Part shown: one piece after another, positions 7,800-59,291 of the stretch
Layout of the letters: each line of letters opens with the position of its first letter
Position numbering within the stretch: the first letter of the stretch is position 1
Assembly (NCBI GenBank): GCA_003551905.1
Contig: PUNT01000031.1
Span: 1 to 59,552 of the forward strand
Length of the DNA stretch: 59,552 nt
Direction: 5' to 3'
Origin: Halanaerobiales bacterium
Lineage (GTDB): Bacteria; Bacillota; Halanaerobiia; B1SED10-174
Made by a program: the position numbers and the translations under genes
Notes under the pieces: generated by a model
The model's input: the letters and a program-made list of their open reading frames with translations, nothing else
Told to the model about the DNA's origin: nothing
Databases searched by the model: none

Positions 7800-8713
7800 G
7801 CTTGGTGGAACAGTATGGGAATAGAGGTATATTCACAACAAATTTTATTTTCACCGACAAAATAAAGAAAATATTAGGATACTAATTGCATGGATTATAA
7901 AAACTTATGAAGATATTACTTGCAAAAAATAACAAGTGAGAGAATTTCTTATCATGGTCAAGCCTGTTGGTATGTCAGCAATTGTAAAGTTCAACAAAAA
8001 ATATTTATATGAAATTTAAAAACCCCATAAATGGCAGCAGAGTTTTCCAGGTAATTTGGAAATAGGGATAGGATGCATTGGTGGCACCATTGGAGAAAAC
8101 GAATTTTCTATGGAGGCATTAAACAGAGAAGCGAAGAAATAGGGACAGAGGTTGAGTTAATTGAGTGGGATCAACCATTTTCGGTGAGTAGCGATCTGCA
8201 GGTTAGCAATAAAAGTCTTCAAGTAGAAGATAATTTATTCTTAACCTGGTATGAAAGAATGCAGAATATGTGTTTTTCAAGGTAAAGCCAGGAAGAGGCC
8301 TTTTCCAGAAGATTTGCCCGGGCGGTTGATAACAGATTTAGGCTTATTGAGGGACTGTATTGATAAGGGATTGTCAATAGAGGAGGGCCTGATAAGAGGT
8401 ATGGAGATTATATCAAGAGGATCAATACCGGCCAAAGGAATAATCAAGGGAGCAGGAATAGTTGAAATATTAGGAGAGCTCTATAAAAACCATAGGAGAA
8501 AAATAGAACACTTATTATAATAAGGACCAGAAATTTCAACTACACTCTTGGTTATACCCAATAGGAGATTGTTTTTATAATGTGGCAATAAAAATCCCTT
8601 TACTGAGTGGAGGGAGTTTTTTTATGTTTCAAAGGTAATTATCTGAAAATGGTGAATAATAATTTATAGAAATCCCCAATTTCTTTAATAACAAAAGTAT
8701 TGGAGGGTTAAAA

Positions 8714-15472: not shown

Positions 15473-16917
15473 GTTTTCAGGGTTTCAGCAGCGGTTATTA
15501 CCGCCCCCTATCGGTAAAAGAAGTTGAGCGCATACACAATACCTCCATGCGAATCTTGGAAGAAGTAGGCTTTATGATAGACAACGATAGAGTTCTCAAG
15601 TTTTTGGAGGACTATGGTTGCCAGGTGGACTATGAGAACAAAAGAGTTTTTGTGGAAACTAAATTGCTTCTGAAAACCATCAAAAGAGCCCCAGCCCGAA
15701 TTTTTCTCTGTGCTAGAGATGAAGAGAAAGATCTAATAATAGAACCCAATAAAACATTTTTCAGCAACGGAGGTACCGCCATCAAGATGATAGATCTGGA
15801 TAATGGCAAAAGACGAGATACCTGCCTTAAAGATCTGGCCCAGATTTGCAAGGTAGTGGATATACTAAAGAATATCCATGTGGTTCACCTGCCGGTTTAC
15901 CCCAATGAATTACCCATGGAAACAGTTGATATCCACCGCTTTTTTACAGCCCTGAACAATAATACCAAGCATGTAATGGGAGGACTCTATACACTGCAAG
16001 GGGCCAGAGATGTCATCAGGATTGCCAGCATTATAAACGGGTCAAACAGCCTGGCAGAAAAACCAATAATCAGTTTCATCACTTCACTGATCAGCCCCCT
16101 GAAGATAGAAGGAAATTATGCAGATATAATGTACGAGGCAGCTCAAAACGGTATTCCTGTGGTCACTTCTGTTTGTTCCATAGCTGGTCTTACCACCCCC
16201 ATTACCTTAGCCGGCCAGTTGGCTCAGTTGAATGCCGAAGCCCTGAGCGGTATATTCCTCATGCAGGTCTTTAAAGCCGGGTCGCCAGCTTTTTATAGTG
16301 TGGTTCCAACCATTGCGGACATGCGTTCAATGCAATTTCTCTTTGGGTCAATAGAAAGTGGTCTCATGAACTCAGCCCTGGCCCAGATGGCTTCATTCTA
16401 CAATTTGCCCATGTATTCCACCGGGGGAGTAACAGATTCCAAGACCAGCGATATACAGGCCGGATTTGAAAAAGGCATGAGCAGTTTAATGCTTTCCCTG
16501 GCCGGAGGTCAGCTAATCCACAATTCAGCCGGGCTGCTGGAGGGAAGTATTGTCTTCAGCCTGGAAGAACTCATTATTGATGATGAGATAAATGGTATGG
16601 CCTTGCGAGCTGCCCGGGGTATTGAGATCGATGAACAGACACTGGCTTTTGCAGCCATCAAAGAGGTTGGTCCCGGGGGCAATTATATTACCCATCCCCA
16701 TACCATGAATTATCTGCACTCAGAGAACTTCTTTCCCCAGGTAGCAGAGCGGAGCAACTACGTGGAATGGATACAGAAAGGAGCCTGGACATCGCCAGGT
16801 AAAGCCAATAAGATAAGCAAGGATATTCTGGAAACTCATCATGTACCGCCACTGGAGGATAATGTGCTGGAACAGATAGAGAAAGAGTTTCCCCAGTTAC
16901 AACAGCTAAAGGTATAA
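15469..16917 (+). CDS. Second MttB-superfamily protein, non-pyrrolysine type (paralogue)
   Basis: 482 aa. ATG overlaps the upstream stop (ATGA at 15469-15472). ...IHNTSMRILEEVGF..., ...NNTKHVMGGLYT..., ...GPGGNYITHPHT... Confidence 0.85.
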   Translation: MSFQGFSSGYYRPLSVKEVERIHNTSMRILEEVGFMIDNDRVLKFLEDYGCQVDYENKRVFVETKLLLKTIKRAPARIFLCARDEEKDLIIEPNKTFFSNGGTAIKMIDLDNGKRRDTCLKDLAQICKVVDILKNIHVVHLPVYPNELPMETVDIHRFFTALNNNTKHVMGGLYTLQGARDVIRIASIINGSNSLAEKPIISFITSLISPLKIEGNYADIMYEAAQNGIPVVTSVCSIAGLTTPITLAGQLAQLNAEALSGIFLMQVFKAGSPAFYSVVPTIADMRSMQFLFGSIESGLMNSALAQMASFYNLPMYSTGGVTDSKTSDIQAGFEKGMSSLMLSLAGGQLIHNSAGLLEGSIVFSLEELIIDDEINGMALRAARGIEIDEQTLAFAAIKEVGPGGNYITHPHTMNYLHSENFFPQVAERSNYVEWIQKGAWTSPGKANKISKDILETHHVPPLEDNVLEQIEKEFPQLQQLKV

Positions 16918-22016: not shown

Positions 22017-22105
22017 AAGCGAAAATGGCAAACCTGCCGAAAGGCAGGGGCGCAAAGCCATGGGCCTAAAACCAGAAGGTTAGGGCAGCCGGTTGCCGCG
22101 GAGGA
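22017..22105 (+). promoter_or_regulatory. c-di-GMP-I (GEMM-I) riboswitch aptamer
   Basis: ...AUGGCAAACCUGCCGAAAGGCAGGGGCGCAAAGCCAUGGGCCUAAAACCAGAAGGUUAGGGCAGCCGGUUGCCGCGG... matches the GEMM-I core as in Vc2 (GGCAAACC-stem-GAAA-stem-GGRCGCAAAGCC...GGCCUAAACC). It lies 5' of a GGDEF/HD-GYP gene. Confidence 0.8.
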
Positions 22106-22127
22106 ATTTAGTTCTGACTTTTTCCCG

Positions 22128-22158
22128 GGGCATCCAAGCTTGTTTTGATGCTCTTTTT
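22128..22158 (+). terminator. Riboswitch expression-platform terminator
   Basis: GGGCATC (22128-22134) pairs with GATGCTC (22147-22153), followed by TTTTT. Located 25 nt before the ATG at 22183. Confidence 0.6.
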
Positions 22159-22182
22159 CCTGTCCAGGAGGGGAAAATATAT

Positions 22183-24444
22183 ATGGAAAAAGAAAAAAGA
22201 GGTCTGACAATTTTTGCTGCAGAGGCGCTGCGAGTAATATTGAATAATATAAATGACGCAATTTTCATTCATGAACTGGATGGAACAATTATAGATGTCA
22301 ATGAAAAGATGCTGGAATTGTACAGGGTAACCAGGGAAGAAGCCCTTAAGTATTCTATTGCCGGCGATTTCTCTACCCCCAGCAATCCCCTGAGAACCCT
22401 GCCCAGAACCTGGGAGAAAGTTGTTGAAGGGGAGAAACAGGTCTTTGAATGGGAAGCCCGCAGGCCTAAAGATGGTTCCATGTTCTATGTTCAGGTGTCC
22501 TTGCATCGCTTGAGCCTGGATGACCGGTACGTGATAATGGCAGTTGTTCAGGATATAACTGAAAGGAAAAATGCTGAAAAAGTTTTGCAGAGAAGTGAGG
22601 AGATGCATCGGACCACCTTTGAAAATACTGGAACAGCCATGGCTACAATTGCTGAGGATGGCAAAATCGCCCTGGTGAATCAACAGATGGAAACCTTTAC
22701 CGGTTATTACAAAAGGGAACTGGCAGGTATGAATTACCGGAAAATAATCCATCCGGATGATCTGATAAAACTGGAACCAATACTGGATGGTGATAGTGAT
22801 GGAGAGGGTGTGGCTGGTCAGTGTGAAATCAGGATAATTAACAGGATGGGAAAGGTAAGACATGTCTTTCTCAATACCAATGTAATACCCCGGACCCGGT
22901 GGAGAGTTATGTCCAAAGTTGATATTACGGAATTTAAAAAGATGGAAAATATGTTAAAGGAAAGTAAGAATAAGGTTCAGAGAATTCACGATGTTGCTGT
23001 GAAGATGGGCAGCACCCGGAGCTGTGAGGATGTCTGTCGTCTCATAGTTGATGCCGCTAAGAGTATTTTGAACATGACCTCCTGTGCTGTTGACCTGGTT
23101 GAAGGTGATATGCTGGTGGTTAAAGCTACATCAGAGGGCGGGTTATCAATTTCTCCCCGGGATATGCCCATAGACCATGGTATAAGCGGGAAAACCTACA
23201 GCACAGGTAAGACCTTTCTCATCAATGATCTAGATGAGATGCCAGAGATAGAAAATCAGGATGACTCCAGTATCCATTCCCTTATCAGCGTACCCATTGG
23301 CAGGGTGGGTATCTTCCAGGCTGTTTCTGACAAAGCAAATGCTTTCAGCAGTCAGGATGTGGAAATGGTAGAACTGCTGGTAGCCCATGCCGCAGAGGCC
23401 ATTAAGAGAATACATTCAGAAGAAAGAATCAGGTACATGAGCTTCCATGACAGCCTTACCGGCCTTTATAATCGGGCTTTCTTTGAAGAGGAATTGAAGA
23501 GACTGGATACTAAACGTCAGCTACCTTTGAGTATTATCATTGCCGATGTCAATGGGCTGAAGCTCATTAATGACACTTTTGGCCATCAGGAGGGTGATAA
23601 AATATTAACCCGGATAACCAAGAGAATACAGGAATCCTGCCGTAAAGAGGATATTGTTTGCCGCTGGGGAGGAGATGAATTTGCCATACTCCTGCCCCGG
23701 ACCCCGGAAGAGACCTGTCAGGATATTGTCAACCGTATTGAAAAAGCTTGCAGCGGGTGTGAGAGAGGCTGGATTCCCCTGAGCATTTCCCTGGGCTGGG
23801 GTGTCAAACTGACAAAAAAGAAGAGGTTTTACGATGTTATAAAGGTAGCTGAAGAAAGAATGTATAGAAAGAAGCTCACAGAGAGTATGAATTATCGTAA
23901 CAAGGTGCTGGAATTTTTAAAAGATCACCTGTTCCAGAAGAGCAATGAAACAGAGGAACATGTGCAAGAGTTACAAAAATTGGGGGAAAGGGTGGGCGAA
24001 GCCCTCTCACTTTCAGAAGGTGAAATAAAAGAAATAAAAAGTCTGGCTGCTCTCCATGATATAGGTCATATTGCAATCCCCGAAAAGATTTTGATGAAGC
24101 CGGATAAGTTGAATGAAGATGAATGGAAAACCATCTGTCAGCACCCGGAAATTGGTTATCGCATCGTTGAAGCCAGTCCGGAAAAAGGTTCAGTTGCCTA
24201 TGGAATACTGGCCCATCACGAATGGTGGAATGGAGAAGGATACCCCCGGGGTCTTAAAGGAAAAGATATTCCCCTGACAGCCCGAATTATTTCCATAATT
24301 GATGCCTATGATGTTATGGTCAGGGGCAGACCTTATAAAGATCCTGTGAGCAAAAAAGAGGCTCTGGAGGAAATTAAAAGATGCGCTGGCAGCCAGTTCG
24401 ATCCGGAACTGGTGGAAGTTTTTTGCCAGATTGTTGAGGAGTGA
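22183..24444 (+). CDS. PAS-PAS-GAF-GGDEF-HD-GYP c-di-GMP turnover protein
   Basis: ATG 22183 after AGGAGGGG; the ORF-track start at 22093 would run through the riboswitch. ...RWGGDEFAILL (GGDEF) and ...LHDIGHIAIP..., ...HHEWWNGEGYPRGL... (HD-GYP). Confidence 0.9.
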   Translation: MEKEKRGLTIFAAEALRVILNNINDAIFIHELDGTIIDVNEKMLELYRVTREEALKYSIAGDFSTPSNPLRTLPRTWEKVVEGEKQVFEWEARRPKDGSMFYVQVSLHRLSLDDRYVIMAVVQDITERKNAEKVLQRSEEMHRTTFENTGTAMATIAEDGKIALVNQQMETFTGYYKRELAGMNYRKIIHPDDLIKLEPILDGDSDGEGVAGQCEIRIINRMGKVRHVFLNTNVIPRTRWRVMSKVDITEFKKMENMLKESKNKVQRIHDVAVKMGSTRSCEDVCRLIVDAAKSILNMTSCAVDLVEGDMLVVKATSEGGLSISPRDMPIDHGISGKTYSTGKTFLINDLDEMPEIENQDDSSIHSLISVPIGRVGIFQAVSDKANAFSSQDVEMVELLVAHAAEAIKRIHSEERIRYMSFHDSLTGLYNRAFFEEELKRLDTKRQLPLSIIIADVNGLKLINDTFGHQEGDKILTRITKRIQESCRKEDIVCRWGGDEFAILLPRTPEETCQDIVNRIEKACSGCERGWIPLSISLGWGVKLTKKKRFYDVIKVAEERMYRKKLTESMNYRNKVLEFLKDHLFQKSNETEEHVQELQKLGERVGEALSLSEGEIKEIKSLAALHDIGHIAIPEKILMKPDKLNEDEWKTICQHPEIGYRIVEASPEKGSVAYGILAHHEWWNGEGYPRGLKGKDIPLTARIISIIDAYDVMVRGRPYKDPVSKKEALEEIKRCAGSQFDPELVEVFCQIVEE

Positions 24445-31684: not shown

Positions 31685-33865
31685 GTGCCCGTGGATAAAA
31701 GAATTCTGTTAATAGCAACAGTAACCATATTTTACATATTTACCATGCTTTCTGTGCCCTGTATTAAAGCTCAGGATAGTGTGCCGGTTCATATTGAAGG
31801 CAGGGATACCGGTCATCATGGTCACATGTGGGATGGCACATTCTTTATACCCATACGGGCACTGGAGCAGGATTTTGCAATGGAAATGCAGTGGCTGGGT
31901 AGTTTGAAACTCCTGCATGTTAAATTAGATGGGGTGAATTTCCGCATTCGGGAAGGTGATGGCAACATGCAGGTAGAATCCAGCCTGGTTAAGATAACTC
32001 CTCCCCGAATACATGAAGACAAGATCTGGATTCCTGCATCAGATGTCCTGGATGTTCTTGATTACACTGTTGAATTCGATCCGGAGAAGAATATTTTACA
32101 TATAGGCAAAGAGCCAAAGATAATTGCCGGAGTGGAGTTTGATCCTCAGGAGCAAACTCTAACCGTATCAGCAGAAGAACCTATTAGATACAATGTTCTG
32201 GAGAGGGATTCCTTTGTGCTCCAGCTTTATCAGGTGGACACCTGTGATGATTTTGAGCTGATTTTTGCTGATGAGGAAGGTGACCTGCAGAAAGATTTCC
32301 CCTGGAATATGCGGATTGCCATGCCGACCCTACCAGGTCCCAGGGAGGTTCTGGAAGTTGAAGATGATGAAGGGTACAGCCTTATTTTCAAGTTTCCCAG
32401 CCGTCTTGTTGGGCTGGATTACTCAAAGGAGCGTTTACAGGTAAAAACAGCAGGTACCATTGAAGATTATAGGATAATTGAGGTTGATGATGGGGACAGG
32501 CTTGTGTTAGAGTTGGAAGGTGTTATTGTCGGTAAGGGGCTGGAAACTGGCCAGGGAGTACAGATAGAACAGGTTAAAACCGACCCTCCCGTTATACAGA
32601 TAGAAATACCTTTTGCAGACAAGATGGAATACAGTTTACATAAGCCGGATAATAAAAGCATTATTGTAGAGCTGGGAAAACAGAATTACATAGAAGATAT
32701 CAGGTGGTCAAAAGAAAAAGGGCTGGAGATAGTATCCAGCAAGGCAGTTTCTTTAAATTCTTTTACCCTGGAAGAACCCCTGCGGAAGGTATTTGATATT
32801 CCTGCTACCAGGCTGGCAGGCAATGCTTCAACTATAGATGTGGATGATGGGACTATTGAAAGGATCAGATATTCTCAGTTTGACCAGGAAACAGTCCGGG
32901 TTGTCCTGGATTTAAATTATCTGCCAGAGTATAGGGTTGAAGAGTGGCAGGAGAGGACAGGCAGTACCCGAATTGCTTTCCAGCACAGGGTTTTCCAGAT
33001 TGCCCAGGAAGAAGAATTAACCAAAGAACTTTATCACATAAAATTAACCGGTGAGGCCGAATATGATGTTCATTACCTATCTTCACCTTACCGGGTGGTG
33101 GTGGATATCAAAAACGCAGTTTTAGGCATGGAAGAGGACATGCCCCGGGAAACTGAACTCCTCCGGGGATTGCGGGCCAGTCAGTTTTCCAGAGATCCTG
33201 ATGTTGTCAGGGTGGTCTTTGATCTTGCCCATAATCCCAAGAATAGCATACTCAGTTCCCCCCGTAGCGACACAATAACCCTGGAATTTACCAAGTCGCC
33301 TTTTTTGGGCAGGGTTATTGTTATCGATCCCGGCCATGGAGGATTTGACCCGGGAGCTATTGGACCAGCAGGAACTTATGAAAAGGATATAGTTCTGGAT
33401 ATCAGCTTGCGTTTGCGAGAACTTTTGCAGCCAACAGGCGTCCGGATAATAATGACCCGGGACAAAGATGAATTTGTATCCCTCTGGGCCCGGACCGAGC
33501 TGGCCAATAAGGTGAATGCAGATGCTTTTATCAGCGTGCATGCCAATGCCCATGTCCGGGGTATTCCTGAAGGGATTGAGACCTACATAAGTCCCAGATG
33601 TCATCAGTATTCTTTTAGGCTGGCTGAATTTGTGCATAGAGAAGTTGTTAGGGAACTGGGCCTCAGGGACCGGGGGGTAAAACAGGAGAACTATAAGATA
33701 ATAGATCCCTTGAAGGTGCCGGGCATACTGCTGGAAGTGGCTTTTCTATCCAACCCGCTGGAAGAGAGAATTCTCAGGGATGCAAACAGAAGGCAGGATA
33801 TTGCTGAAGCCATATTCCGGGGACTGAATGAATACTTCACACAATTACGCCGGGAGGGAAGATAA
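31685..33865 (+). CDS. N-acetylmuramoyl-L-alanine amidase (Amidase_3) with stalk and AMIN-like repeats
   Basis: 726 aa. GTG after GGGAGGGGG. Signal anchor and a copper-amine-oxidase-N-like stalk. C-terminal ...VIVIDPGHGGFDPGAIGPAG..., ...FISVHANA..., ...PGILLEVAFLSNP... Confidence 0.85.
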   Translation: MPVDKRILLIATVTIFYIFTMLSVPCIKAQDSVPVHIEGRDTGHHGHMWDGTFFIPIRALEQDFAMEMQWLGSLKLLHVKLDGVNFRIREGDGNMQVESSLVKITPPRIHEDKIWIPASDVLDVLDYTVEFDPEKNILHIGKEPKIIAGVEFDPQEQTLTVSAEEPIRYNVLERDSFVLQLYQVDTCDDFELIFADEEGDLQKDFPWNMRIAMPTLPGPREVLEVEDDEGYSLIFKFPSRLVGLDYSKERLQVKTAGTIEDYRIIEVDDGDRLVLELEGVIVGKGLETGQGVQIEQVKTDPPVIQIEIPFADKMEYSLHKPDNKSIIVELGKQNYIEDIRWSKEKGLEIVSSKAVSLNSFTLEEPLRKVFDIPATRLAGNASTIDVDDGTIERIRYSQFDQETVRVVLDLNYLPEYRVEEWQERTGSTRIAFQHRVFQIAQEEELTKELYHIKLTGEAEYDVHYLSSPYRVVVDIKNAVLGMEEDMPRETELLRGLRASQFSRDPDVVRVVFDLAHNPKNSILSSPRSDTITLEFTKSPFLGRVIVIDPGHGGFDPGAIGPAGTYEKDIVLDISLRLRELLQPTGVRIIMTRDKDEFVSLWARTELANKVNADAFISVHANAHVRGIPEGIETYISPRCHQYSFRLAEFVHREVVRELGLRDRGVKQENYKIIDPLKVPGILLEVAFLSNPLEERILRDANRRQDIAEAIFRGLNEYFTQLRREGR

Positions 33866-39004: not shown

Positions 39005-39082
39005 CGGAGCGTAGCGCAGCTTGGCTAGCGCGCCTGCTTTGGGAGCAGGAGGTCGAAGGTTCAAATCCTTTCGCTCCGACCA
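39005..39082 (+). tRNA. tRNA-Pro (anticodon TGG), CCA encoded
   Basis: Cloverleaf folded by hand. Acceptor CGGAGCG/CGCTCCG, anticodon arm CCTGC-TT[TGG]GA-GCAGG, T-loop TTCAAAT, 3' ACCA. Confidence 0.9.
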
Positions 39083-39095
39083 TTTTTCCCTAAGG

Positions 39096-39172
39096 GCGGG
39101 AGTAGCTCAGCTGGCTAGAGCATCAGCCTTCCAAGCTGAGGGTCGCGGGTTCGAATCCCGTCTCCCGCTCCA
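39096..39172 (+). tRNA. tRNA-Gly (anticodon TCC), CCA encoded
   Basis: Acceptor GCGGGAG/CTCCCGC, anticodon arm TCAGC-CT[TCC]AA-GCTGA, T-loop TTCGAAT. Confidence 0.9.
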
Positions 39173-39177
39173 ATTTT

Positions 39178-39253
39178 GCGCCTGTAGCTCAGGGGAAAGA
39201 GCAGTGGACTTCTAATCCATTGGTCGGGGGTTCGAATCCTCCCAGGCGCACCA
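39178..39253 (+). tRNA. tRNA-Arg (anticodon TCT), CCA encoded
   Basis: Acceptor GCGCCTG/CAGGCGC, anticodon arm GTGGA-CT[TCT]AA-TCCAT, T-loop TTCGAAT. Confidence 0.9.
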
Positions 39254-39270
39254 GCGAAAATAAAGTTTGC

Positions 39271-39348
39271 GGTGGGTGTAGCTCAGGTGGTTAGAGCGCA
39301 GGATTGTGGCTCCTGAGGCCGTGGGTTCAAGTCCCATCACTCACCCCA
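39271..39348 (+). tRNA. tRNA-His (anticodon GTG) with encoded G-1, CCA encoded
   Basis: Extra 5' G pairing with discriminator C. Acceptor GTGGGTG/CACTCAC, anticodon arm CAGGA-TT[GTG]GC-TCCTG, T-loop TTCAAGT. Confidence 0.9.
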
Positions 39349-43973: not shown

Positions 43974-45626
43974 ATGGATATGTTTTTTTTCTGGGCCATT
44001 CAGCTGGTTATAGTGGCAGTTATTGGACTGTACATTTACAGACTAATGCACAGGCAGCGGGGGAGTCGAAAAAAAGTGGTGCGGGATTCACAAAAAGAGC
44101 TGGACAAGCTTGAACAGATGCGGCAAAAAAGTTTAAGTGAACCTCTTTCGGAGAAAACCAGGCCAGCCAGTTTTTCTGAAATAATTGGTCAGGAAGAGAG
44201 CCTGGAAGCGCTGGAGGCATCCCTCTGTGGGCCCAATCCCCAGCATGTTTTGATCTATGGCCCTCCTGGTGTTGGGAAAACTGCTGCTGCCCGACTGGTC
44301 CTGGAAATAGCCAAGAGAAACCGGATTTCACCTTTTAAGGAGGATGCCAGGTTTGTAGAAATGGATGCTACCACAGCCCGTTTTGATGAAAGAGGTATAG
44401 CAGATCCCCTCATCGGATCGGTGCACGATCCCATCTATCAGGGAGCAGGTGCCATGGGGGTAGCAGGGATACCTCAACCCAAACCTGGAGCTGTAACCAG
44501 GGCTCATGGGGGCATCTTATTCATCGATGAAATTGGCGAGTTGCATCCTATACAGATGAATAAACTCCTCAAGGTCTTAGAGGATCGGAAAGTTTTCCTG
44601 GAAAGCGCTTACTATAACGAGGAGGATAGAAACATTCCCCAGTATGTCCACGAGATATTTAAGAAAGGTTTACCGGCTGATTTCAGGTTAGTAGGAGCCA
44701 CTACCCGATCAGCTCAAGACATTCCCCCAGCTATCAGATCTCGGTGCCTGGAAATTTATTTCCGGGGGCTTACCCCGGATGAAGTGAGCAGTATTGTAGT
44801 CCGGGCAGCGGAAAAGATCCAGGTGCAGATAGAATCTGCTGCCCTGGAAGTAATTAAAAAGTATGCCAGCAATGGTCGGGAAGGTGTGAACATAGTTCAG
44901 ATTGCTGCTGGAATTGCTGCTGTGAAAGGCAGAGTAGCCATAATCAGGGAGGATGTGGAAAGGGTAATTAACAGCGGTCAGTACAGCCCCAGACTGGACA
45001 AGAAAATTAATTCCCAACCCAAGGTGGGGATTGCCCATGGATTGGCTGTGCAAGGACCAAATATGGGCATATTACTGGACGTAGAGGTTGTTACTGCCCA
45101 AGCCAAAGAAGGAGAAGGCAGGTTAAAAATTACTGGAGTAATTGAGGAAGAAGAGATCGGGAGCAGGGGCCATGTTCTCAAGAGAAAATCGATGGTTAAA
45201 AACTCACTGGAAATAGTCCTTACGGTACTGGATTCTCTGCTTTCCCAGGGGACAGAGTCTTTCCACATTCATGTTAATTTTCCCGGGGGCATACCTATCG
45301 ATGGACCTTCAGCAGGATTGACACTGGCTGTTGCCATTTATTCTTCATTGACCGGTAAACCTGTAGATAATAAGATAGCCATGACCGGCGAAATATCCCT
45401 GGGAGGAGAGATAAAGGGGGTAGGAGGTGTTGGGGCTAAAATTGAAGCAGCTCGCCAGGCTGGTGCAAAAAAGATTCTAATTCCCCAGGAGAACTGGCAG
45501 GAGAGCTATGCTTTTTTGGAAGGTGCCCAGGTTAAAGGAGTTATTTCCCTGGAAGAGGCTCTGAAGGAGGCTCTTATCAGTACAGTTCCTCCTCTTCCTC
45601 CTCTTCCTCTGCCGGGGTCCCTCTGA
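43974..45626 (+). CDS. lonB: Sporulation-type Lon-like protease LonB
   Basis: N-terminal TM helix, AAA+ GPPGVGKT, and a C-terminal Lon protease domain ...PIDGPSAGLTLAVAIYSSLTG... 550 aa, positioned between clpX and lon as in Bacillus. Confidence 0.85.
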   Translation: MDMFFFWAIQLVIVAVIGLYIYRLMHRQRGSRKKVVRDSQKELDKLEQMRQKSLSEPLSEKTRPASFSEIIGQEESLEALEASLCGPNPQHVLIYGPPGVGKTAAARLVLEIAKRNRISPFKEDARFVEMDATTARFDERGIADPLIGSVHDPIYQGAGAMGVAGIPQPKPGAVTRAHGGILFIDEIGELHPIQMNKLLKVLEDRKVFLESAYYNEEDRNIPQYVHEIFKKGLPADFRLVGATTRSAQDIPPAIRSRCLEIYFRGLTPDEVSSIVVRAAEKIQVQIESAALEVIKKYASNGREGVNIVQIAAGIAAVKGRVAIIREDVERVINSGQYSPRLDKKINSQPKVGIAHGLAVQGPNMGILLDVEVVTAQAKEGEGRLKITGVIEEEEIGSRGHVLKRKSMVKNSLEIVLTVLDSLLSQGTESFHIHVNFPGGIPIDGPSAGLTLAVAIYSSLTGKPVDNKIAMTGEISLGGEIKGVGGVGAKIEAARQAGAKKILIPQENWQESYAFLEGAQVKGVISLEEALKEALISTVPPLPPLPLPGSL

Positions 45627-48856: not shown

Positions 48857-49433
48857 AAACACCTGTTTATTGAAGATGACTACAAGTAAAAAGGATTATC
48901 CCCAGCTGGAACTGCCAGAAGTTGCCCTGGCTGGCCGGTCCAATGTGGGAAAGTCTTCTTTGATCAATGCCCTTGTCAGCAGGCGAAATCTTGCCTATAT
49001 TAGCGGTCGTCCGGGCAAGACCAGAACCATAAATTTTTACAAAATAGAGGATAAGTTCATCCTGGTTGACCTCCCTGGATATGGATATGCCCGAGTTTCT
49101 AAGGGGGAAAGGATGAAGTGGGGGCAGATGATAGACGAATATCTTAATAACAGGGATAATCTCAGGGGGATAGTTCAGATCCTGGATATCCGTCATGAAC
49201 CAACAGAACTTGATCAAAAGATGTTTAACTGGATAAAGACAGTAGGTATTCCTTTCCTTCTGGTGGCCACCAAATGCGATAAGATAAGCAAGGGTAAATG
49301 GCAGCACCATAGTATGAGGATTATAAATAGCCTGGATAAAAGTATTGAGTGGGACAAACTGGTACCGTTTTCTGCTGTCAAAGGCACCGGCCGCAATGAA
49401 GTATGGGGGTTTTTAACTAATGTCACATCATAA
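48849..49433 (+). CDS. engB: Ribosome-biogenesis GTPase EngB/YsxC
   Basis: ...PEVALAGRSNVGKSSLINAL..., ...LVDLPGYGYA..., ...ATKCDK... ATG 48849 overlaps the lon stop. Confidence 0.9.
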   Translation: MSENTCLLKMTTSKKDYPQLELPEVALAGRSNVGKSSLINALVSRRNLAYISGRPGKTRTINFYKIEDKFILVDLPGYGYARVSKGERMKWGQMIDEYLNNRDNLRGIVQILDIRHEPTELDQKMFNWIKTVGIPFLLVATKCDKISKGKWQHHSMRIINSLDKSIEWDKLVPFSAVKGTGRNEVWGFLTNVTS

Positions 49434-50187
49434 GAATTATCAAGGGGATGAGCCCTATAGTGTTCTGGCCAGGTTCTATGATGACTTGATGAAGGTTGTT
49501 GATTATGAAGGCTGGCTGGATTACCTGGAAAAACTCCTGAAGCATTACCGGCTGGTCCCCCGAACCATACTTGATCTGGCTTGTGGTACCGGTAATATGG
49601 CCATTCCCCTGGCTCAAAAGGGCTACAAGGTTTATGGGGTGGATAGGTCCAGGGACATGTTAGAGATGGCAGAGAAGAAAAAAACAGATAAGAGTAATCC
49701 AGTATTTATATGTCAGGACATGCGTCAGTTAGCCTTAGCTGAGAGGGTTGACCTGGTAGTTTCTTTCTACGACAGCGTCAATTATATTAAGAGTTTTGAT
49801 GAGCTTATCATCACCTTCAAAAATGTGGAGAAGGTTTTGCATCCGGGTGGTTATTTTATTTTTGACTTCAATACTGCTCACCGCATAAAAAGTATAAAAG
49901 AAGGTATTCATATTTATGAGGGGAATAACTATACATGTTTCTGGCGAGATAGGATTGACCGGGAGAAATGTTACTGGTGGGCAGAATTAACCATCTTTCT
50001 CCGGGAGGGGAGAGAGAATTATCGACGCTACAGGGAAGTTCACCTGGAAAGGGGGTATTCTGCTGGTGAAATGGCCCGGGCTGTCATGGCAGGAGGTCTA
50101 AAAAAAATAGGCAGCCTGGAAGCCTATACTTTTGAAAAAGGCTGGGATAATTGTGACCGGTTGTTTTTTATTTGCCAGAAAGTTTGA
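49420..50187 (+). CDS. Class I SAM-dependent methyltransferase
   Basis: ...ILDLACGTGNMAIPLAQKGYKVYGVDRS... (motif I), ...DLVVSFYDS..., ...LHPGGYFIFD... Confidence 0.8.
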   Translation: MSHHKNYQGDEPYSVLARFYDDLMKVVDYEGWLDYLEKLLKHYRLVPRTILDLACGTGNMAIPLAQKGYKVYGVDRSRDMLEMAEKKKTDKSNPVFICQDMRQLALAERVDLVVSFYDSVNYIKSFDELIITFKNVEKVLHPGGYFIFDFNTAHRIKSIKEGIHIYEGNNYTCFWRDRIDREKCYWWAELTIFLREGRENYRRYREVHLERGYSAGEMARAVMAGGLKKIGSLEAYTFEKGWDNCDRLFFICQKV

Positions 50188-50217: not shown

Positions 50218-51888
50218 GTGAATAAGGGGAGTTCTTTTGCAGTTCTATTAATAGTTCTCTTACTGATGGTTTTTTTTAATTTTTCTTCAGTATCTGCTGC
50301 CCCGCGATTTCTAATAATTCATGTTGATGCAATTTCATCGGAGTTATTCTTTGAACAAATGGAAGCCGGAGGACTTCCAAACCTGGAACGGGTTTTTTCC
50401 CGAGGCAGCATGATCAGATATGGAATGACTTCTTTTCCCGGGGGTACTGAAACTACTCTTACTCGTCTTAAAGACAGCTTAAATACTGATGAAGGGAATA
50501 TTGTTAGTTATACCATGCTTGATCAGGGTGAGGGAGGTAGGGTTGAAGATAATATTCAAGGTTTGTTTAACATAATGCCTGATGCTGGTAAGGATGCCCT
50601 TATGCTATGGAATATATTACCCAATTTGCAGCGCCGTTCCCTGAGCCATGTCATATATGGCATACCTGTTTTTGATATTCTGGGAGGACTGGCCTTACAT
50701 AATGTGCCTAGACTCCTGGAGAAATACAACATAGTGGAGTTTTACTGGTTCAGCAGTGATGGGGTTGGCCATATATTTGGTAGAGATGCTCAGCTCAAGA
50801 ATCTACAGAGATTTGACAGCTATTTTGGCAACATGATAGATAGGCTCAACTGCCTGGAGAATTTGAATATTATTGTATATGCAGATCATGGCATGTCCTA
50901 TGGAGATATGGTGCATGTACAGACCAGCCAGGAAGCAAAGGATGCCGCTGGCGATAAATTATTATACTTTTCCTATCCCCATGTCTATCTGTCAGATGAT
51001 GCTGATATAGAAGCAATAGCTAAAAAAATAGCCTGGGAAAAAGAATTTGATTATGCTTTTTACCGGCAAGCTCCTGATGTGGTAACTGGTTTTCATGAAG
51101 AGGGAAGCCATCTAACATTTAAAGGGGGGGAAGAGGGTATTAGTTACTCATTTACCGGTGAGGATACCCTGGGGTATTATAATATGGGTTACGAAGGCGA
51201 GTATTTAACAGGTGAAGAATGGTTAACTATAACCAGGGAAATGGAATATCCGGCAGTTCCACCTGCAGTGTATAACCTTTTAATGAATCCCCACTCCGGC
51301 CATGTGGTGGCAGTTATTAACCCCCCTCGGATACCTGCAAATTTGGCGTTACAGCATGGAAGTCATTCAGGGTTTTCCAGCACCTGTCTCATGGTTCCCA
51401 TTCTACTTAAGGGGCCGGAATTGGAGCATTTGTACCAGAAAGAAGAGCTGTGGTTATATCAGACTTTTCCCCTGATAGAGGGGATGGATTTCAATAATTT
51501 TGAGCCAGGAAGAGAATACCATACTGTGCGGATCTGGTCCAACAGGGATGGTGAAATAGGTGGGAGCTTATCGTTTTCGCCGACCTACCGCTGGCGTCTG
51601 GGACTGGAATACAATGATTACTACAAGGCCTGGGGGGAATATGATTTCTTCAGCACCTTTTTAACCAGATTATGGTTGGGGGCAGGGTTGCAGTACCGGG
51701 ATGATCAATTAAGTCCTCTGGGAGGAATGAAAGTAGAATTTACTGTTGGCAACTTAACTCTGAATTATCAGGGGCAGACCACCGGCCAGGGCTGGGATTC
51801 TTCTACCTATATATCGTACCAGATATTGCCCCGGTTATCCATGGAAACCATATTTAATGGAGCTCTGGGTATGCAGTATGAGTGGTAA
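50218..51888 (+). CDS. Secreted alkaline-phosphatase-superfamily phosphodiesterase/nucleotide pyrophosphatase fused to a C-terminal beta-barrel-like module (paralogue 1)
   Basis: 556 aa. GTG after GAGGAG. Signal peptide ...SSVSA. Motifs LIIHVDAIS, FPGGTETT, SSDGVGHIFG and YADHGMS in NPP order. The last ~130 aa are amphipathic strands ending ...GALGMQYEW. Confidence 0.8.
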   Translation: MNKGSSFAVLLIVLLLMVFFNFSSVSAAPRFLIIHVDAISSELFFEQMEAGGLPNLERVFSRGSMIRYGMTSFPGGTETTLTRLKDSLNTDEGNIVSYTMLDQGEGGRVEDNIQGLFNIMPDAGKDALMLWNILPNLQRRSLSHVIYGIPVFDILGGLALHNVPRLLEKYNIVEFYWFSSDGVGHIFGRDAQLKNLQRFDSYFGNMIDRLNCLENLNIIVYADHGMSYGDMVHVQTSQEAKDAAGDKLLYFSYPHVYLSDDADIEAIAKKIAWEKEFDYAFYRQAPDVVTGFHEEGSHLTFKGGEEGISYSFTGEDTLGYYNMGYEGEYLTGEEWLTITREMEYPAVPPAVYNLLMNPHSGHVVAVINPPRIPANLALQHGSHSGFSSTCLMVPILLKGPELEHLYQKEELWLYQTFPLIEGMDFNNFEPGREYHTVRIWSNRDGEIGGSLSFSPTYRWRLGLEYNDYYKAWGEYDFFSTFLTRLWLGAGLQYRDDQLSPLGGMKVEFTVGNLTLNYQGQTTGQGWDSSTYISYQILPRLSMETIFNGALGMQYEW

Positions 51889-51933
51889 ATTAGCTTCAAT
51901 GCTTGTTTAAAAAATACACAAGGAGCTGATAAA

Positions 51934-53562
51934 GTGCCAATTACCAGGCTAAGAAAGGCGGTAATGATTGCACTCTTGTTAATTTTCTGCTTTAACCTCT
52001 CAGCTATGTCCAGTTCACCAAAGTTTTTAATAATTCATGTAGACGGGGTTTCGGCAGATTTTTTCTTTGAAGCGATGGAAGCTGGCGGTTTTCCCAACAT
52101 GGAAAGGGTATTTTCTGATGGTAATATGATTAAACATGGTCTAACTCTTTTCCCCGGGGGCACTGAAACCATACTAACCCGTTTTAAAGAGGGGAAAGAT
52201 ACCAGTGAAGGTGATATTGTGAGCTGGGCAATATTTGATCGGGAAGAAGAGCGTATAGTAGGTAGAGATGCCCTGGTTTTTCTCAATATTTTGCCCAATG
52301 TTGCCCGTCGTTCTTTGGGTCTTTTTTTCTACGGTATTTTTGTTTTTGATGTCTTTGGTGGGGTGGCAATGCATAACGTGCCCAGTCTTCTGGAAAAGTA
52401 CAATGTGGTGGAGTATTACTGGTACAGCAGTGATGGGGTTGGTCACATATTTGGCCAGAAAGCCCAGCTAGAAAACTTAAAGCGGTTTGACAGTTATTTC
52501 GGTGATATGGTTGAGCGCCTGGGGGATATAGACGATTTGAACATTATACTGTACGGAGATCATGGCATGTCCTATGGCGATGTTATTCATGTGCCCACTC
52601 CGGATGAGGCAGAAGCTGCAGCAGGAGATGACTTCCTGGCTTTCTCCTATCCCCACATATATTTGGCAGAGGGCGCTGATGCAGAAAATATTGCAGAAAA
52701 AGCTGCCACAGAGAGAGACTTTGATTATGCCTTTTATCGAGGTTCTGAGAATATGGTAATTGGTTTCCATGAAAGTGGCAATGAATTAAGGTTCAAGGGT
52801 AGTGAAGCAGGGATTAGTTATACCTATGAAGGTGAGGATACCCTGGGGTACTATGACCTGGGTTATGATTGTGAATACCTCTCGCATAATGAATGGCTGG
52901 CATTAACCCGAGATGCAGAGTATCCAGCAACTCCTCCATTGATCTACAACTTGATTATGAATCCCAATTCAGGTGATGTGCTGGCTATTGTAAATCCTCC
53001 CAGAATCCCCAGCAACATTCTTCTCCGGGAAGCCAATCATGCAGGTCTTTCCCGCACCTGTTTAATGGTACCAATACTTCTCAGGGGGCCAGATTTAGAA
53101 CATCTTTATCATGAAGAGGAGATGTGGCTCCATGAACTTCTTGTCCAGATTGATGCCCTGGACTTTGCCGAGAAAAACCCCAGAAGAGAGAATCATTCCT
53201 TGCGAGTCTGGTGGGATCTTGATGGTCAATTAGGTGGGAGTTTATCCTTTTCTCCCGCTTACCGGTGGAGAATAGGGGTTGAATATGATGAGGATTATAA
53301 AGCATGGGGCGAATTTGACATTTTGAGTACCTATCTTGCCCGGATCTGGCTTGCTGCCGGTTTGCAGTACAGTGACAATAAACTAGCCCCTTTGGGGGGC
53401 TGTAAGGTAGAATTCACTGTAGGTAATCTCTCACTGAATTACAGGGGAGAAACCGGTGGAGAAGAATGGGATTCTGCTGTGTATCTTTCCTACCGGCTTT
53501 TGCCAGAATTTTCTCTGGAAGCATTGCTTGATGGAGCAGTGGGATTACGCTGGGAGTGGTAA
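51934..53562 (+). CDS. Secreted AP-superfamily phosphodiesterase fused to a C-terminal beta-barrel-like module (paralogue 2)
   Basis: 542 aa. GTG after AAGGAG. Signal peptide ...LSAMS. Motifs LIIHVDGVS, FPGGTETI, SSDGVGHIFG and YGDHGMS. C-terminus ...GAVGLRWEW. Confidence 0.8.
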   Translation: MPITRLRKAVMIALLLIFCFNLSAMSSSPKFLIIHVDGVSADFFFEAMEAGGFPNMERVFSDGNMIKHGLTLFPGGTETILTRFKEGKDTSEGDIVSWAIFDREEERIVGRDALVFLNILPNVARRSLGLFFYGIFVFDVFGGVAMHNVPSLLEKYNVVEYYWYSSDGVGHIFGQKAQLENLKRFDSYFGDMVERLGDIDDLNIILYGDHGMSYGDVIHVPTPDEAEAAAGDDFLAFSYPHIYLAEGADAENIAEKAATERDFDYAFYRGSENMVIGFHESGNELRFKGSEAGISYTYEGEDTLGYYDLGYDCEYLSHNEWLALTRDAEYPATPPLIYNLIMNPNSGDVLAIVNPPRIPSNILLREANHAGLSRTCLMVPILLRGPDLEHLYHEEEMWLHELLVQIDALDFAEKNPRRENHSLRVWWDLDGQLGGSLSFSPAYRWRIGVEYDEDYKAWGEFDILSTYLARIWLAAGLQYSDNKLAPLGGCKVEFTVGNLSLNYRGETGGEEWDSAVYLSYRLLPEFSLEALLDGAVGLRWEW

Positions 53563-54587
53563 AAATACCGCATAAATAGGAAATATGAGATTCCCAGGAA
53601 AAAAGCCCAGATAAGAGTATAGGTGTATTTATTGTTCCAGAGCAGGGAAACCTGGATCTGGGTTTCCCATGTTAAAGATTCATAAAGATCTTCAGGACCG
53701 ATAAAGGCTAAGGTAAAAGGTATCTCTTCAAATATGACCACTTCTTCTCCCTGGGAGATATCCAGGTCCTTCATAATTCCTTTTTCCAGGAATGGATAAT
53801 TCAGAACACTGAAGATACTGTTCTTATTGGGAGTACACCTGACCCAGCCTTTCTCAGGGTCATGATACTCTACCCAGTAATGAAGGAGAGGTGTTCTGGT
53901 GATAGAGGGGAAAGATGGAGAAAGGTAAAGGCCTTCAATAAGCCGGCTGGGAATTCCTCGGGTGCGGGCCAGGGCAGTTAGCAGGAGAGCTTTATCCTTC
54001 TCACTGCCTTCTCTGTTGTTTAAAGCTTCCAAAGCAGAGGAATAATCACCGTCATCTTTTTCCTGGATGCTACCTGCAATGAATCTCTGCAGAATATTGA
54101 TATTTTCTTCTTTGGAATTATCCAGTTCTGTAAGGTTTCTGGCAGCACTGACTATCTGGGGATGGGAGGTTTCTATCCCTTCTGATGGGCCCAGATACAA
54201 CTGGTATGGAAGTGAATGCATTTCAGGTCGAGGGTGATCTTTTAGGATTACCTGGTAAGATAATCTCATGGTATTTTTGCCGGGAGGGAGGTCAAGGGGG
54301 TCAAGGAGATAATATTTCTGACCATTGGTTTCTTCCAGAATCTTTCTGGCAGGAGTGGTTTCGTTGATCTTTAGTGCAGCATCCACTATCTCTTGATTAT
54401 GATTCGAAGGTGGCATGAAAAAAAGGCCCCGGTTAAACAAAAGGGGTTTTTTTTCTTCCATGTGTAATTTTTCTACTACATAATAGGTGCTGCTGCCGGG
54501 AATCAACATGAATATAAGGGCTGTACCGGTTGTTAGTAGGGTGATTACAATAATTAAGGAAATAAGTAGCAAATTTCTTGTGGGCAA
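53490..54587 (-). CDS. Membrane-anchored transglutaminase-like domain protein with degenerate catalytic triad
   Basis: ORF track to 54626; TTG 54587 lies 6 nt after AGGAGGA. N- and C-terminal TM helices. Core ...GSEKDKALLLTALARTRGIPSRLIEG...LHYWVEYHDPEKGWVRCTP aligns to G-x-C...GIPAR...H-x-W-x-E...W...DP, with Cys->Glu and Asp->Thr. Confidence 0.7.
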   Translation of the reverse strand: MPTRNLLLISLIIVITLLTTGTALIFMLIPGSSTYYVVEKLHMEEKKPLLFNRGLFFMPPSNHNQEIVDAALKINETTPARKILEETNGQKYYLLDPLDLPPGKNTMRLSYQVILKDHPRPEMHSLPYQLYLGPSEGIETSHPQIVSAARNLTELDNSKEENINILQRFIAGSIQEKDDGDYSSALEALNNREGSEKDKALLLTALARTRGIPSRLIEGLYLSPSFPSITRTPLLHYWVEYHDPEKGWVRCTPNKNSIFSVLNYPFLEKGIMKDLDISQGEEVVIFEEIPFTLAFIGPEDLYESLTWETQIQVSLLWNNKYTYTLIWAFFLGISYFLFMRYFYHSQRNPTAPSSNASRENSGKSR

Positions 54588-54655
54588 GGCTATTCCTCCT
54601 CTTGCGAGCTTTATAGATATTTCCACGGTTTTAGATGATTATCCTTCCTGGGAAA

Positions 54656-57803: not shown

Positions 57804-57880
57804 GGGGCTATAGCTCAGTAGGATAGAGCGGCAGATTCCTAATCTGTAGGTCGCAGGTTCGATTCCTGCTAGCCCTACCA
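57804..57880 (+). tRNA. tRNA-Arg (anticodon CCT), CCA encoded
   Basis: Acceptor GGGGCTA/TAGCCCT (G1-U72), anticodon arm GCAGA-TT[CCT]AA-TCTGT, T-arm GCAGG-TTCGATT-CCTGC. Confidence 0.9.
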
Positions 57881-58547: not shown

Positions 58548-59291
58548 ATCAGAACAAGTATATTATTAATAACGGTTTTGCTGGTTTTAGCCACAACAAC
58601 CACTCCTGCTTATAGTTGTGTGGGGAGCAGGCCGCTAGGCATGGGAGGGGCCTTCATTGCTGTCGCTGATGATGTTAACACACTATATTGGAACCCGGCC
58701 GGTGTCGCTACAGCAAGAGAAGGCATTATTTACTTTATAACCCTGACTAGTCCTGACCAGATGGGGTACAGGCACTTCATAGGTGTTAATAAAAAACTGG
58801 ATGGTCAGGGAATAGGTTTTTCTTATATACAAAGAATAAGGCCCTGGGATAAAGCAGAAGAAAATTGGTATGTTGTCTCCTTTGGTACTGAAATAATTGA
58901 AGGAATTTCTTTTGGGTTGAACTACCGTTATAAGGAAGACAAACAGGGTGGAAGCTATAACCAACAGGACTTAGGATTCCTTTGGAGGATCAATGACAAT
59001 ATTTCAGCAGGAGCATTATATCAATCGCTAAATAATCTTAGGCTTGGGATTTCCTATTCAAATGCTGATGAGGGTATTTTGCTGTCAGCAGATGTATATG
59101 ATGCACTTGACTACAGAAGATATATGATAGGGGCTGAGTACAGCCTGGATGAATGGGCTATCCGTACAGGACTATATAATAAAGACCCGACTATAGGTAT
59201 TGGTTATAATTTTAAACGGTTTTCTTTTGACATAGCAGTTATGTTCAGGAATACAAACATAGTTAAAACCAGTTTCACTTATGAGTTTTAA
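58548..59291 (+). CDS. Putative outer-membrane beta-barrel protein with FadL/PorV-like N-terminal motif
   Basis: ...GMGGAFIAVADDVNTLYWNPAGV... then alternating-pattern strands ending ...VKTSFTYEF (beta-signal). ORF track starts at TTG 58578 with no SD. In-frame ATC 58548 lies 7 nt after GGAGGGGGG and restores a full signal peptide (IRTSILLITVLLVLATTTTPAYS). Confidence 0.7.
   Translation: MRTSILLITVLLVLATTTTPAYSCVGSRPLGMGGAFIAVADDVNTLYWNPAGVATAREGIIYFITLTSPDQMGYRHFIGVNKKLDGQGIGFSYIQRIRPWDKAEENWYVVSFGTEIIEGISFGLNYRYKEDKQGGSYNQQDLGFLWRINDNISAGALYQSLNNLRLGISYSNADEGILLSADVYDALDYRRYMIGAEYSLDEWAIRTGLYNKDPTIGIGYNFKRFSFDIAVMFRNTNIVKTSFTYEF

Follow-up and report, generated by a model that had tools for sequence, protein, structure and literature searches.

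OmpM, OmpA and OprF combine, in one polypeptide, a barrel that is inserted into the outer membrane (OM) by the β-barrel assembly machinery (BAM) and a soluble domain that faces the periplasm; the role of this domain is to bind peptidoglycan and not to catalyse, and the barrels have 8 or 16 strands. The autotransporter EstA and the patatin-POTRA-Omp85 protein PlpD carry a hydrolase N-terminal to an OM barrel, also in one chain, but with 12- or 16-stranded barrels, a pore-spanning linker or POTRA domains, and an enzyme that is exported. PagP, PagL, LpxR, OMPLA and OmpT/Pla are small or medium-sized OM barrels that bring catalysis to the OM, and in these the barrel itself is the catalytic part, with an active site directed to the outer leaflet or to the exterior. 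On the side of the enzymes, the nucleotide pyrophosphatases/phosphodiesterases (NPPs; Xanthomonas NPP, 2GSN; ENPP1-7; Pfam family PF01663) belong to the alkaline phosphatase (AP) superfamily, and we know of no NPP with a C-terminal membrane barrel. Here, we describe two adjacent genes, A and B, that encode just such a fusion, hereafter called AP-barrel protein. They lie on a stretch of 59,552 nucleotides from a Halanaerobiales bacterium (contig PUNT01000031.1 of assembly GCA_003551905.1, positions 1 to 59,552 of the forward strand), which is referred to as the window.

In contrast to OmpM and OmpA, the soluble domain of the AP-barrel protein is a predicted catalytic domain of the AP superfamily, and the barrel has ten strands and minimal loops; the barrels of OprF and OmpA are among the Foldseek matches to the AP-barrel module. 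The lineages concerned also have OmpM (PMC10628300, PMC5007114), whose barrel is C-terminal and preceded by an SLH domain at the N terminus. None of the features that set EstA and PlpD apart is predicted for the AP-barrel protein, but a lipid theme is common to PlpD-type fusions and the AP-barrel family, whose genes neighbour a patatin-like phospholipase gene in Atribacterota. Unlike in PagP-type enzymes, the active site would be in a periplasmic domain of its own, and the barrel seems to be no more than a passive anchor; the fold matches include PagL, Pla and OmpW, of which Pla has a barrel of 10 strands. The architecture is genuine, conserved and undescribed: an enzyme of the NPP type is joined to a novel barrel that would serve as its dedicated OM anchor. 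It is fairly probable, in our view, that AP-barrel proteins are Sec-exported, bipartite OM proteins in which a periplasmic NPP-type enzyme is anchored by its own barrel, with an envelope phosphodiester as the likeliest substrate.

The tandem genes and their enzyme domains

The two genes and their parts, with amino acids abbreviated as aa and open reading frames as ORFs, are:
50218-51888, plus strand: gene A, AP-barrel fusion ORF, GTG start, 556 aa; GAGGAG Shine-Dalgarno-like hexamer 8 nt upstream
50218-50298, plus strand: gene A putative signal peptide, aa 1-27, MNKGSSFAVLLIVLLLMVFFNFSSVSA↓A; Sec/signal peptidase I type, without lipobox; read from the sequence
50299-51453, plus strand: gene A NPP-type AP-superfamily domain, aa 28-412; from PF01663, invariant columns and Foldseek
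51454-51522, plus strand: gene A linker, aa 413-435, with P430-x-R432-E433 near-invariant in 107 family members; predicted local distance difference test score (pLDDT) 81-92
51523-51885, plus strand: gene A predicted C-terminal 10-stranded β-barrel, aa 436-556; from AlphaFold2 (AF2), Foldseek and the β-signal
51934-53562, plus strand: gene B, paralogous ORF, GTG start, 542 aa; AAGGAG Shine-Dalgarno-like hexamer 8 nt upstream
51934-52011, plus strand: gene B putative signal peptide, ~aa 1-26, MPITRLRKAVMIALLLIFCFNLSAMS; read from the sequence
52012-53127, plus strand: gene B NPP-type domain, ~aa 27-398; from PF01663 and residues aligned to gene A
53197-53559, plus strand: gene B predicted C-terminal β-barrel, aa 422-542; aligned to the gene A barrel

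An earlier note on this DNA, made from the letters alone, had described two adjacent paralogues of 556 and 542 aa with well over half of their residues identical, and this was borne out: BLASTP gives 324/548 identities (59%) and 80% positives over the full length. The translations contain the motifs quoted there (IIHVD, FPGGTET, DGVGHIFG, DHGMS) as well as the C-terminal GALGMQYEW and GAVGLRWEW, and the upstream order lon-engB-methyltransferase is also as given, with gaps of 30 nt between the methyltransferase gene and gene A and of 45 nt between genes A and B. An exact search of public assemblies for the gene A product returned no record. The three-part architecture proposed in the note, a signal peptide, an NPP-type AP core and a C-terminal OM barrel with a β-signal, is supported by Pfam, conservation, AF2 and Foldseek. 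Both N termini have the n, h and c regions of a signal peptide, with apparent cleavage sites VSA↓A in gene A and LSA/AMS in gene B; residues 3-20 of gene A are modelled as a helix in the full-length AF2 model, and hydrophobic N termini are found throughout the family in an alignment of 40 homologues.

In the family tree, genes A and B group as sisters; the tandem pair is, judged by this tree, a lineage-specific duplication in which the catalytic residues are intact in both copies. Tandem pairs are otherwise rare, with one other, partial case (locus L008). Gene B overlaps by 73 nt at its 3' end (53490-53562) with the convergent ORF of a transglutaminase-core membrane protein (53490-54626, minus strand). 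A terminator-like hairpin on the minus strand (53401-53385) falls inside gene B. Scans of the window for promoters and terminators gave results at the level of shuffled sequence, and no operon boundaries were defined.

PF01663 was expected over residues ~30-400. It does match both proteins above the gathering cut-off of 23 (gene A 38.9 bits, gene B 40.7 bits), but covers only residues ~155-235, i.e. ~70 residues around the DxxGH...DHG core (profile positions 158-230 of 342), and the rest of the fold comes from structure prediction. The same label is precomputed for 75 of the 79 listed proteins, whereas an NCBIfam search with both proteins gave nothing meaningful. The putative metal ligands of gene A are D37, D181, H185, D223, H224 and H383 and the putative nucleophile is T77; gene B has the intact set D37, T77, D167, H171, D209, H210 and H369. 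The six ligands and the Thr are the canonical NPP set in canonical order. In the alignment of 40 full-length homologues, H35 and the six ligands of gene A are invariant and T77 is conserved in at least 90%.

The full-length AF2 model of gene A has a mean pLDDT of 89.8 and a predicted template modelling score (pTM) of 0.89. Searched with Foldseek against the Protein Data Bank (PDB), it retrieves ENPP1, ENPP6, ENPP3 and the Xanthomonas NPP (E 9e-10 to 3e-8, probability 1.0) as well as autotaxin (E ~1e-9), with target-normalised template modelling (TM) scores of 0.52-0.60 for single-domain NPPs. The family profile matches ENPP4 with E 3.7e-9, and the first-Asp and nucleophile motifs are aligned. 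Thus, the enzyme domain and the NPPs are alike in the α/β fold of the AP superfamily, in the two-metal Asp/Asp-His/Asp-His/His site, in the Thr nucleophile and in the order of these elements. They differ in that identity to the structural NPP matches is just 12-15%, in a helical insertion of ~80 residues after the nucleophile helix (gene A ~aa 85-169), and in the family's own invariant residues H35 (two before the first metal Asp), R139 and N162. Taken together, sequence and model identify the domain as a divergent NPP-type member of the AP superfamily with a complete set of catalytic residues and predicted activity.

The predicted C-terminal barrel

Residues 436-555 of gene A form ten consecutive β-strands in the full-length model, and the same ten strands are obtained when the module is modelled alone (AF2, 21 sequences; pLDDT 93.1, pTM 0.81). 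The connecting loops are 2-5 residues long in the domain model. All 50 listed Foldseek PDB matches to the module are transmembrane β-barrels; the best are the designed 10-stranded TMB10_163 (8uzl; E 1.4e-4, TM 0.52, over the whole length) and the designed barrel 6x9z (TM ~0.5), and others listed are FapF, the intimin β-domain, Pla, PagL, KdgM, OmpW, OprF and OmpA. Soluble sandwiches, lipocalins and FABP-type barrels are missing from these 50; of the two outcomes that the earlier note had left to structure prediction, a soluble sandwich or a closed barrel, the matches favour the barrel. In the 107 family members, every strand has one face that is 0-10% charged and 57-99% hydrophobic and an opposite face that is polar, and the invariant residues D476, R484, W486, G488 and G490 are on the polar face. 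Since the hydrophobic faces are free of charge and the invariant residues are on the polar side, the pattern suggests a membrane barrel of small size whose polar lumen is packed, and not a soluble domain with a conserved hydrophobic core.

The consensus of the BAM β-signal is G-x-x-aromatic/hydrophobic-x-aromatic with F or W at the end. Gene A ends in G551-M-Q-Y-E-W556 and gene B in G-L-R-W-E-W; G551, at position -5, is invariant in the 107 sequences and the terminal residue is W or F in 71 of the 77 long (>480 aa) family ORFs. By this comparison, the C terminus fits a BAM-type β-signal.

No match to the module was found in Pfam, NCBIfam or the PDB sequences. Its profile, searched against 1.84 billion representative proteins, retrieved only 58, and these are enzyme-plus-barrel proteins or fragments, bar one spurious hit; the gene B barrel is the second-best hit (E 1.8e-38). 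The sole hit of another architecture, the 895-aa C-type-lectin-like repeat protein P0249 (E 5.8e-4), was treated as a false positive, and short barrel-only hits were rejected as stand-alone barrels because they are fragments that start inside the enzyme domain. As the profile hits are confined to the same fusion, the barrel appears to be private to this enzyme. A description of an NPP-type enzyme fused to an OM barrel was not found in the literature, which agrees with the claim that this is not a described family.

Two known C-terminal modules were considered and rejected. The C-terminal domain (CTD) of the type IX secretion system (T9SS) of Bacteroidota, a β-sandwich of ~80-100 aa (TIGR04183-type), gave no NCBIfam or Pfam match, and the module's fold is matched by membrane barrels; the T9SS is presumably also absent from the lineages of most hosts (Halanaerobiales, Atribacterota, Trueperaceae). 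Type V barrels are 12-stranded (PF03797) or 16-stranded (Omp85) and come with a pore-spanning linker helix or POTRA domains. A type V autotransporter (Va, Vd) was rejected because of the ten strands and because no helix is predicted to connect the enzyme to the barrel; Pfam searches for autotransporter, POTRA or Omp85 domains had no match at E ≤1 with the full-length proteins or at E ≤10 with the barrel alone.

BAM substrates with an even number of strands have both barrel termini in the periplasm. In the 107 sequences, insertions and deletions (indels) occur only in the odd connections L1-L4, with means of up to 3.5 inserted residues, and one family member (P0067) has a charged, acidic insert of ~30 aa in an odd connection. 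The even turns T1-T4 are free of indels, and T1 (S454-P455-x-Y457-R458) is invariant together with the PxRE linker. As read from the alignment, the connections follow the classical scheme in which external loops vary and periplasmic turns are tight, with the conserved side adjoining the enzyme. Since the even-stranded barrel follows right after the enzyme, indels are only in the odd connections and the even turns are invariant, the enzyme domain probably faces the periplasm and is not on the surface. The linker from the enzyme to strand 1 has 23 residues and no helix or plug is predicted; with ten strands there is little room in the packed lumen, and therefore a segment threaded through the pore is disfavoured. 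The high pTM of 0.89 suggests a fixed interface between enzyme and barrel.

Hosts and gene neighbourhoods

The closest named relatives of the ClpX encoded in the window (≤79% identity) are from Anoxybacter fermentans, Halanaerobiales metagenome-assembled genomes (MAGs), Iocasia, Natroniella, Fuchsiella and Orenia, and LonB (43974-45626, plus strand) scores 841.6 bits against TIGR02902 spore_lonB (cut-off 723.3). The gene order tig-clpP-clpX-lonB-lon-engB is Bacillus-like and marks an endospore former alongside LonB. Judged by ClpX and LonB, the host is an endospore-forming Firmicute of the Halanaerobiales type, which upholds the spore-forming background assumed in the earlier note. The note's remark that an OM barrel is doubly unusual in a Firmicute does not hold, since ClpX places the host with the Halanaerobiales, which have a lipopolysaccharide (LPS)-containing OM with BamA, TamB, Skp, OmpM and LolA (PMC5007114); with a host lineage known to be diderm, an OM barrel is expected. 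The window also has a PorV-like gene and a gene for an AMIN-domain protein. The former is a 237-aa ORF (58578-59291, plus strand) that ends in ...FTYEF, with a PorV/PorQ-family N-terminal match of 45 bits, below the cut-off, and a weak Porin_4 match. This OM barrel type, here in a Firmicute, is named after the T9SS of Bacteroidota; the listed start of the ORF may be misplaced either way. The latter encodes a 726-aa N-acetylmuramoyl-L-alanine amidase (31685-33865, plus strand) with AMIN and Cu_amine_oxidN1 domains, which is consistent with an OM; AMIN domains are typical of diderm envelope proteins. The idea that the barrel anchor substitutes for lipoprotein anchoring in bacteria without a Lol system was dropped, since Halanaerobiales have LolA homologues (PMC5007114).

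The AP-barrel family is rare and has no name. When 185,579 species were scanned, each represented by one genome, 99 genomic relatives were found, from Atribacterota, Halanaerobiales, Limnochordia, unclassified 'Bacillota' MAGs, Balneolaceae, Trueperaceae and Sumerlaeota; the closest, with 37-43% identity, are in Atribacterota. Cultured hosts are Halonatronum saccharophilum, Fuchsiella alkaliacetigena, Natroniella sulfidigena and Halanaerobium polyolivorans. Homologues are found essentially only in diderm lineages, as we take all of the family-bearing lineages to be. Four contigs (L003, L005, L006 and L015) were deposited as Promethearchaeota, Actinomycetota, 'uncultured archaeon' and Spirochaetes, but their AP-barrel genes nest in the Atribacterota clade and tamB-like ORFs follow downstream on L003, L006 and L015; these contigs are probably mis-binned.

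All-versus-all clustering of the ORFs at 81 loci revealed no neighbourhood common to all lineages, only clade-specific partners. In a clade of Atribacterota, a signal-peptide-bearing patatin-like phospholipase gene directly precedes the AP-barrel gene on the same strand (L002, L006, L008, L026, L081), with an overlap of 4 nt in L002; truncated patatin copies precede it in L005, L009 and L078. In this clade mazG and tamB follow the AP-barrel gene. The loci with tamB downstream are L001, L003, L006, L008 and L015, and the order in L086 is mazG, AP-barrel, tamB, bamA. A second clade of Atribacterota has DUF2207 and LemA genes upstream instead. The arrangements in Atribacterota with patatin and AP-barrel genes or OM biogenesis genes are:
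L002, 3802-6467
L006, 6940-9605
L008, 1018-3711
L081, 5497-8316
L086, 4641-12865

At other loci, an Exo_endo_phos phosphoesterase gene lies 17 nt upstream of the AP-barrel gene (L088), a lipase-like α/β hydrolase gene is divergently adjacent to it (L084), or a BamD-like gene and secA are upstream (L087). These neighbourhoods tie the family to an OM biogenesis locus and hint at substrates that are phosphodiesters derived from phospholipids, like those of ENPP6, ENPP2 and ENPP7 in animals; periplasmic nucleotide hydrolysis is a serious alternative.

In the window itself, the genes upstream of the pair are tig, clpP, clpX, lonB, a trypsin-like protease gene (minus strand), lon, engB and a methyltransferase gene:
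49420-50187, plus strand: class I S-adenosylmethionine-dependent methyltransferase (Pfam Methyltransf_25/11), 30 nt upstream of gene A

Its homologues (neighbour cluster 16) adjoin the AP-barrel gene in four other Firmicute-type loci (L049, L055, L060, L027); this adjacency is context only and a functional link would be hypothetical. Downstream and convergent are, as described in the earlier note, the transglutaminase-core membrane protein gene, a small ORF for an acidic lipoprotein-like protein and a histidine kinase/OmpR-type regulator pair. With respect to a possible link to the Pho regulon through this pair, the kinase has similar, below-cut-off scores against WalK, PnpS and PhoR, and likewise the regulator against MtrA, YycF and PhoB, which singles out none of these models.

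Apart from these genes, a c-di-GMP-I riboswitch (22017-22100, plus strand; 79.6 bits) stands directly before an ORF (22093-24444, plus strand) for a 783-aa PAS-GAF-GGDEF-HD (HD-GYP-like) protein; the arrangement resembles a feedback loop, with an RNA that senses c-di-GMP in control of an enzyme that would make or break it. Tandem MttB-family methyltransferase genes (14015-15472 and 15469-16917, both plus strand; 485 and 482 aa) overlap by 4 nt. The first has a match to PYLIS_3 (pyrrolysine insertion element) at 14975-15074 with 49 bits and no in-frame stop, and is probably a non-Pyl MttB homologue that retains a PYLIS-like sequence. Four tRNA genes lie within 340 nt (39005-39345, plus strand), and a single one (57804-57877, plus strand) is located between the two-component operon and the PorV-like gene. 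A spike in GC skew of 0.377 at 8001-10000 (elsewhere ~0.0-0.3) coincides with an ORF (8714-10240, plus strand) for a 508-aa GLUG-motif/InlB-B-repeat protein, presumably a repetitive surface protein.

A proposed periplasmic phosphodiesterase anchored by its own barrel

In the model that we favour, the protein would be exported by Sec and signal peptidase I would remove the signal peptide. BamA would then recognise the terminal G-x-x-aromatic-x-W/F and fold the last ~120 residues into a minimal 10-stranded barrel with very short loops. The enzyme would stay in the periplasm, docked on the periplasmic rim of the barrel via the PxRE linker and the SPxYR turn, and its two-metal site and Thr nucleophile would cleave or transfer a phosphodiester or pyrophosphate bond via a covalent phospho-threonine intermediate. 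In this way, the barrel would serve as a protein anchor that fixes the activity at the inner face of the OM. The likeliest substrates would be phosphodiesters of the envelope, namely the head groups of (lyso)phospholipids or of glycerophosphodiesters in or close to the inner leaflet of the OM, and the main alternative would be periplasmic nucleotides or oligonucleotides. Of the roles suggested in the earlier note, remodelling of envelope phosphodiesters fits better with the patatin and tamB-bamA neighbourhoods, whereas scavenging of phosphate or nucleotides at the surface is at odds with a barrel topology that points to a periplasm-facing enzyme.

Several points weigh against this model. Localisation and activity of the family members are predictions, and where the active site sits with respect to the membrane is deduced from fold matches. 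The PF01663 match spans only ~70 residues, and the conserved Asn that binds the phosphoryl group in NPPs, ~21 residues past the nucleophile, has no assigned equivalent; an insertion of ~80 residues follows T77, and the invariant residues D102, R139 and N162 are candidates. Closure of the barrel by pairing of strands 1 and 10 is deduced from fold matches, all of them closed barrels, with modest E values (1e-4) and TM scores (~0.5), and covariation (mutual information with average product correction) recovered some hairpin pairs but was too noisy for the strand 1-strand 10 pairing at an effective number of sequences of 69. The window has no patatin homologue, and the lipid-related genes adjoin the family in Atribacterota and at a few other loci but not in the Halanaerobiales isolates, whose neighbourhoods vary. 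Finally, some of the MAGs with homologues are labelled just 'Bacillota' or 'Clostridiales', and a diderm envelope is an assumption for these.

The enzyme could instead be displayed on the surface, with the barrel as a miniature autotransporter β-domain and the NPP domain scavenging phosphate or nucleotides from the medium. Autotransporters (EstA) and type Vd proteins (PlpD) are indeed the most familiar cases of an enzyme N-terminal to an OM barrel, a linker of 23 residues is present ahead of strand 1, and many host taxa live in soda-lake or saline sediments, where phosphate scavenging may be expected to matter. But the barrel has 10 strands and not 12 or 16, its polar lumen is packed with invariant Gly, Arg, Asp and Trp, neither a helical nor an extended plug is predicted, and autotransporter or POTRA domains were not matched in Pfam. 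Moreover, the connections facing the enzyme would then be L1-L4, the most variable ones with large charged inserts, while the opposite turns would be the invariant ones; we regard surface display as unlikely. The same packed lumen bears on a coupled channel-enzyme, in which a small phosphoester or nucleotide would pass from the outside through the lumen around D476, R484 and W486 to the periplasmic active site. The invariant polar and aromatic residues that line the presumed lumen would suit such a function, as would the observation that the barrel is never found apart from the enzyme and the fixed geometry of the two suggested by the pTM of 0.89. However, barrels of 8-10 strands with packed Gly/Arg/Asp interiors, such as OmpA and OmpX, are usually closed, and the loops of 2-5 residues offer no obvious binding vestibule; a channel is very improbable. 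We give hardly more than a slight chance to the possibility that the module is a soluble β-barrel or sandwich, for example a ligand- or carbohydrate-binding one, and the proteins ordinary secreted or periplasmic phosphodiesterases. Strands of alternating hydrophobic and polar residues alone would fit a soluble β-domain equally well, the more so as closure is deduced, but the 50 of 50 listed fold matches, the polar, Gly-rich conserved face opposite a charge-free hydrophobic one on ten strands, and the terminal W/F with the invariant Gly at -5 all speak for a membrane barrel, as do the confinement of the family to lineages with an OM and the position next to tamB-bamA in Atribacterota.

A different question is whether the enzyme is a phosphotransferase and not a hydrolase, in which some acceptor in place of water would resolve the phospho-Thr intermediate and a glycan or lipid of the envelope would be decorated with a phospho-headgroup, as by EptA, BcsG, LtaS and OpgB. 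PF01663 also takes in the ethanolamine-phosphate transferases of glycosylphosphatidylinositol (GPI) synthesis, and the invariant H35 is unique to the family. According to a preprint (bioRxiv 10.64898/2026.09.23.753746), membrane-anchored enzymes of the AP superfamily that transfer the head groups of phospholipids are well known. On the other hand, the closest matches in sequence and structure are all hydrolytic ENPPs, and no genes of an acceptor pathway are conserved nearby in the 81 loci. The known bacterial transferases of the EptA/LtaS kind belong to the sulfatase-type branch and are anchored in the inner membrane. Transfer is therefore a rather unlikely alternative to hydrolysis.

The OMs of diderms outside the Proteobacteria (Halanaerobiales, Limnochordia, Atribacterota, Deinococcota) bear on the origin and loss of the OM, which is an active topic. 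Few components of such OMs are known beyond BamA, TamB, Skp and OmpM, and the AP-barrel family adds a conserved, unannotated one. Its design, in which a minimal barrel of its own and not a lipid anchor would tether a soluble metallo-enzyme to the inner face of the OM, is unusual, and a 10-stranded barrel with loops of 2-5 residues would be a natural example of the minimal transmembrane barrels that designers have built only recently. It is tempting to go further and to speculate, tentatively, that AP-barrel proteins are an unrecognised OM lipid-homeostasis enzyme of deep-branching or Terrabacteria-type diderms, a periplasmic phosphodiesterase riveted to the OM by a private 10-stranded barrel that removes (lyso)phospholipid or glycerophosphodiester head groups at the inner leaflet of the OM, together with an exported patatin-like phospholipase and TamB/BamA. 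The hypothesis is testable, because four cultured hosts carry the family. Should the lipid connection suggested by patatin and tamB-bamA in Atribacterota prove right, AP-barrel proteins would establish a new class of enzymes in the turnover of OM lipids, and if they do act in lipid homeostasis, the duplicated pair in an endospore-forming diderm could serve the remodelling of the OM in sporulation or germination.

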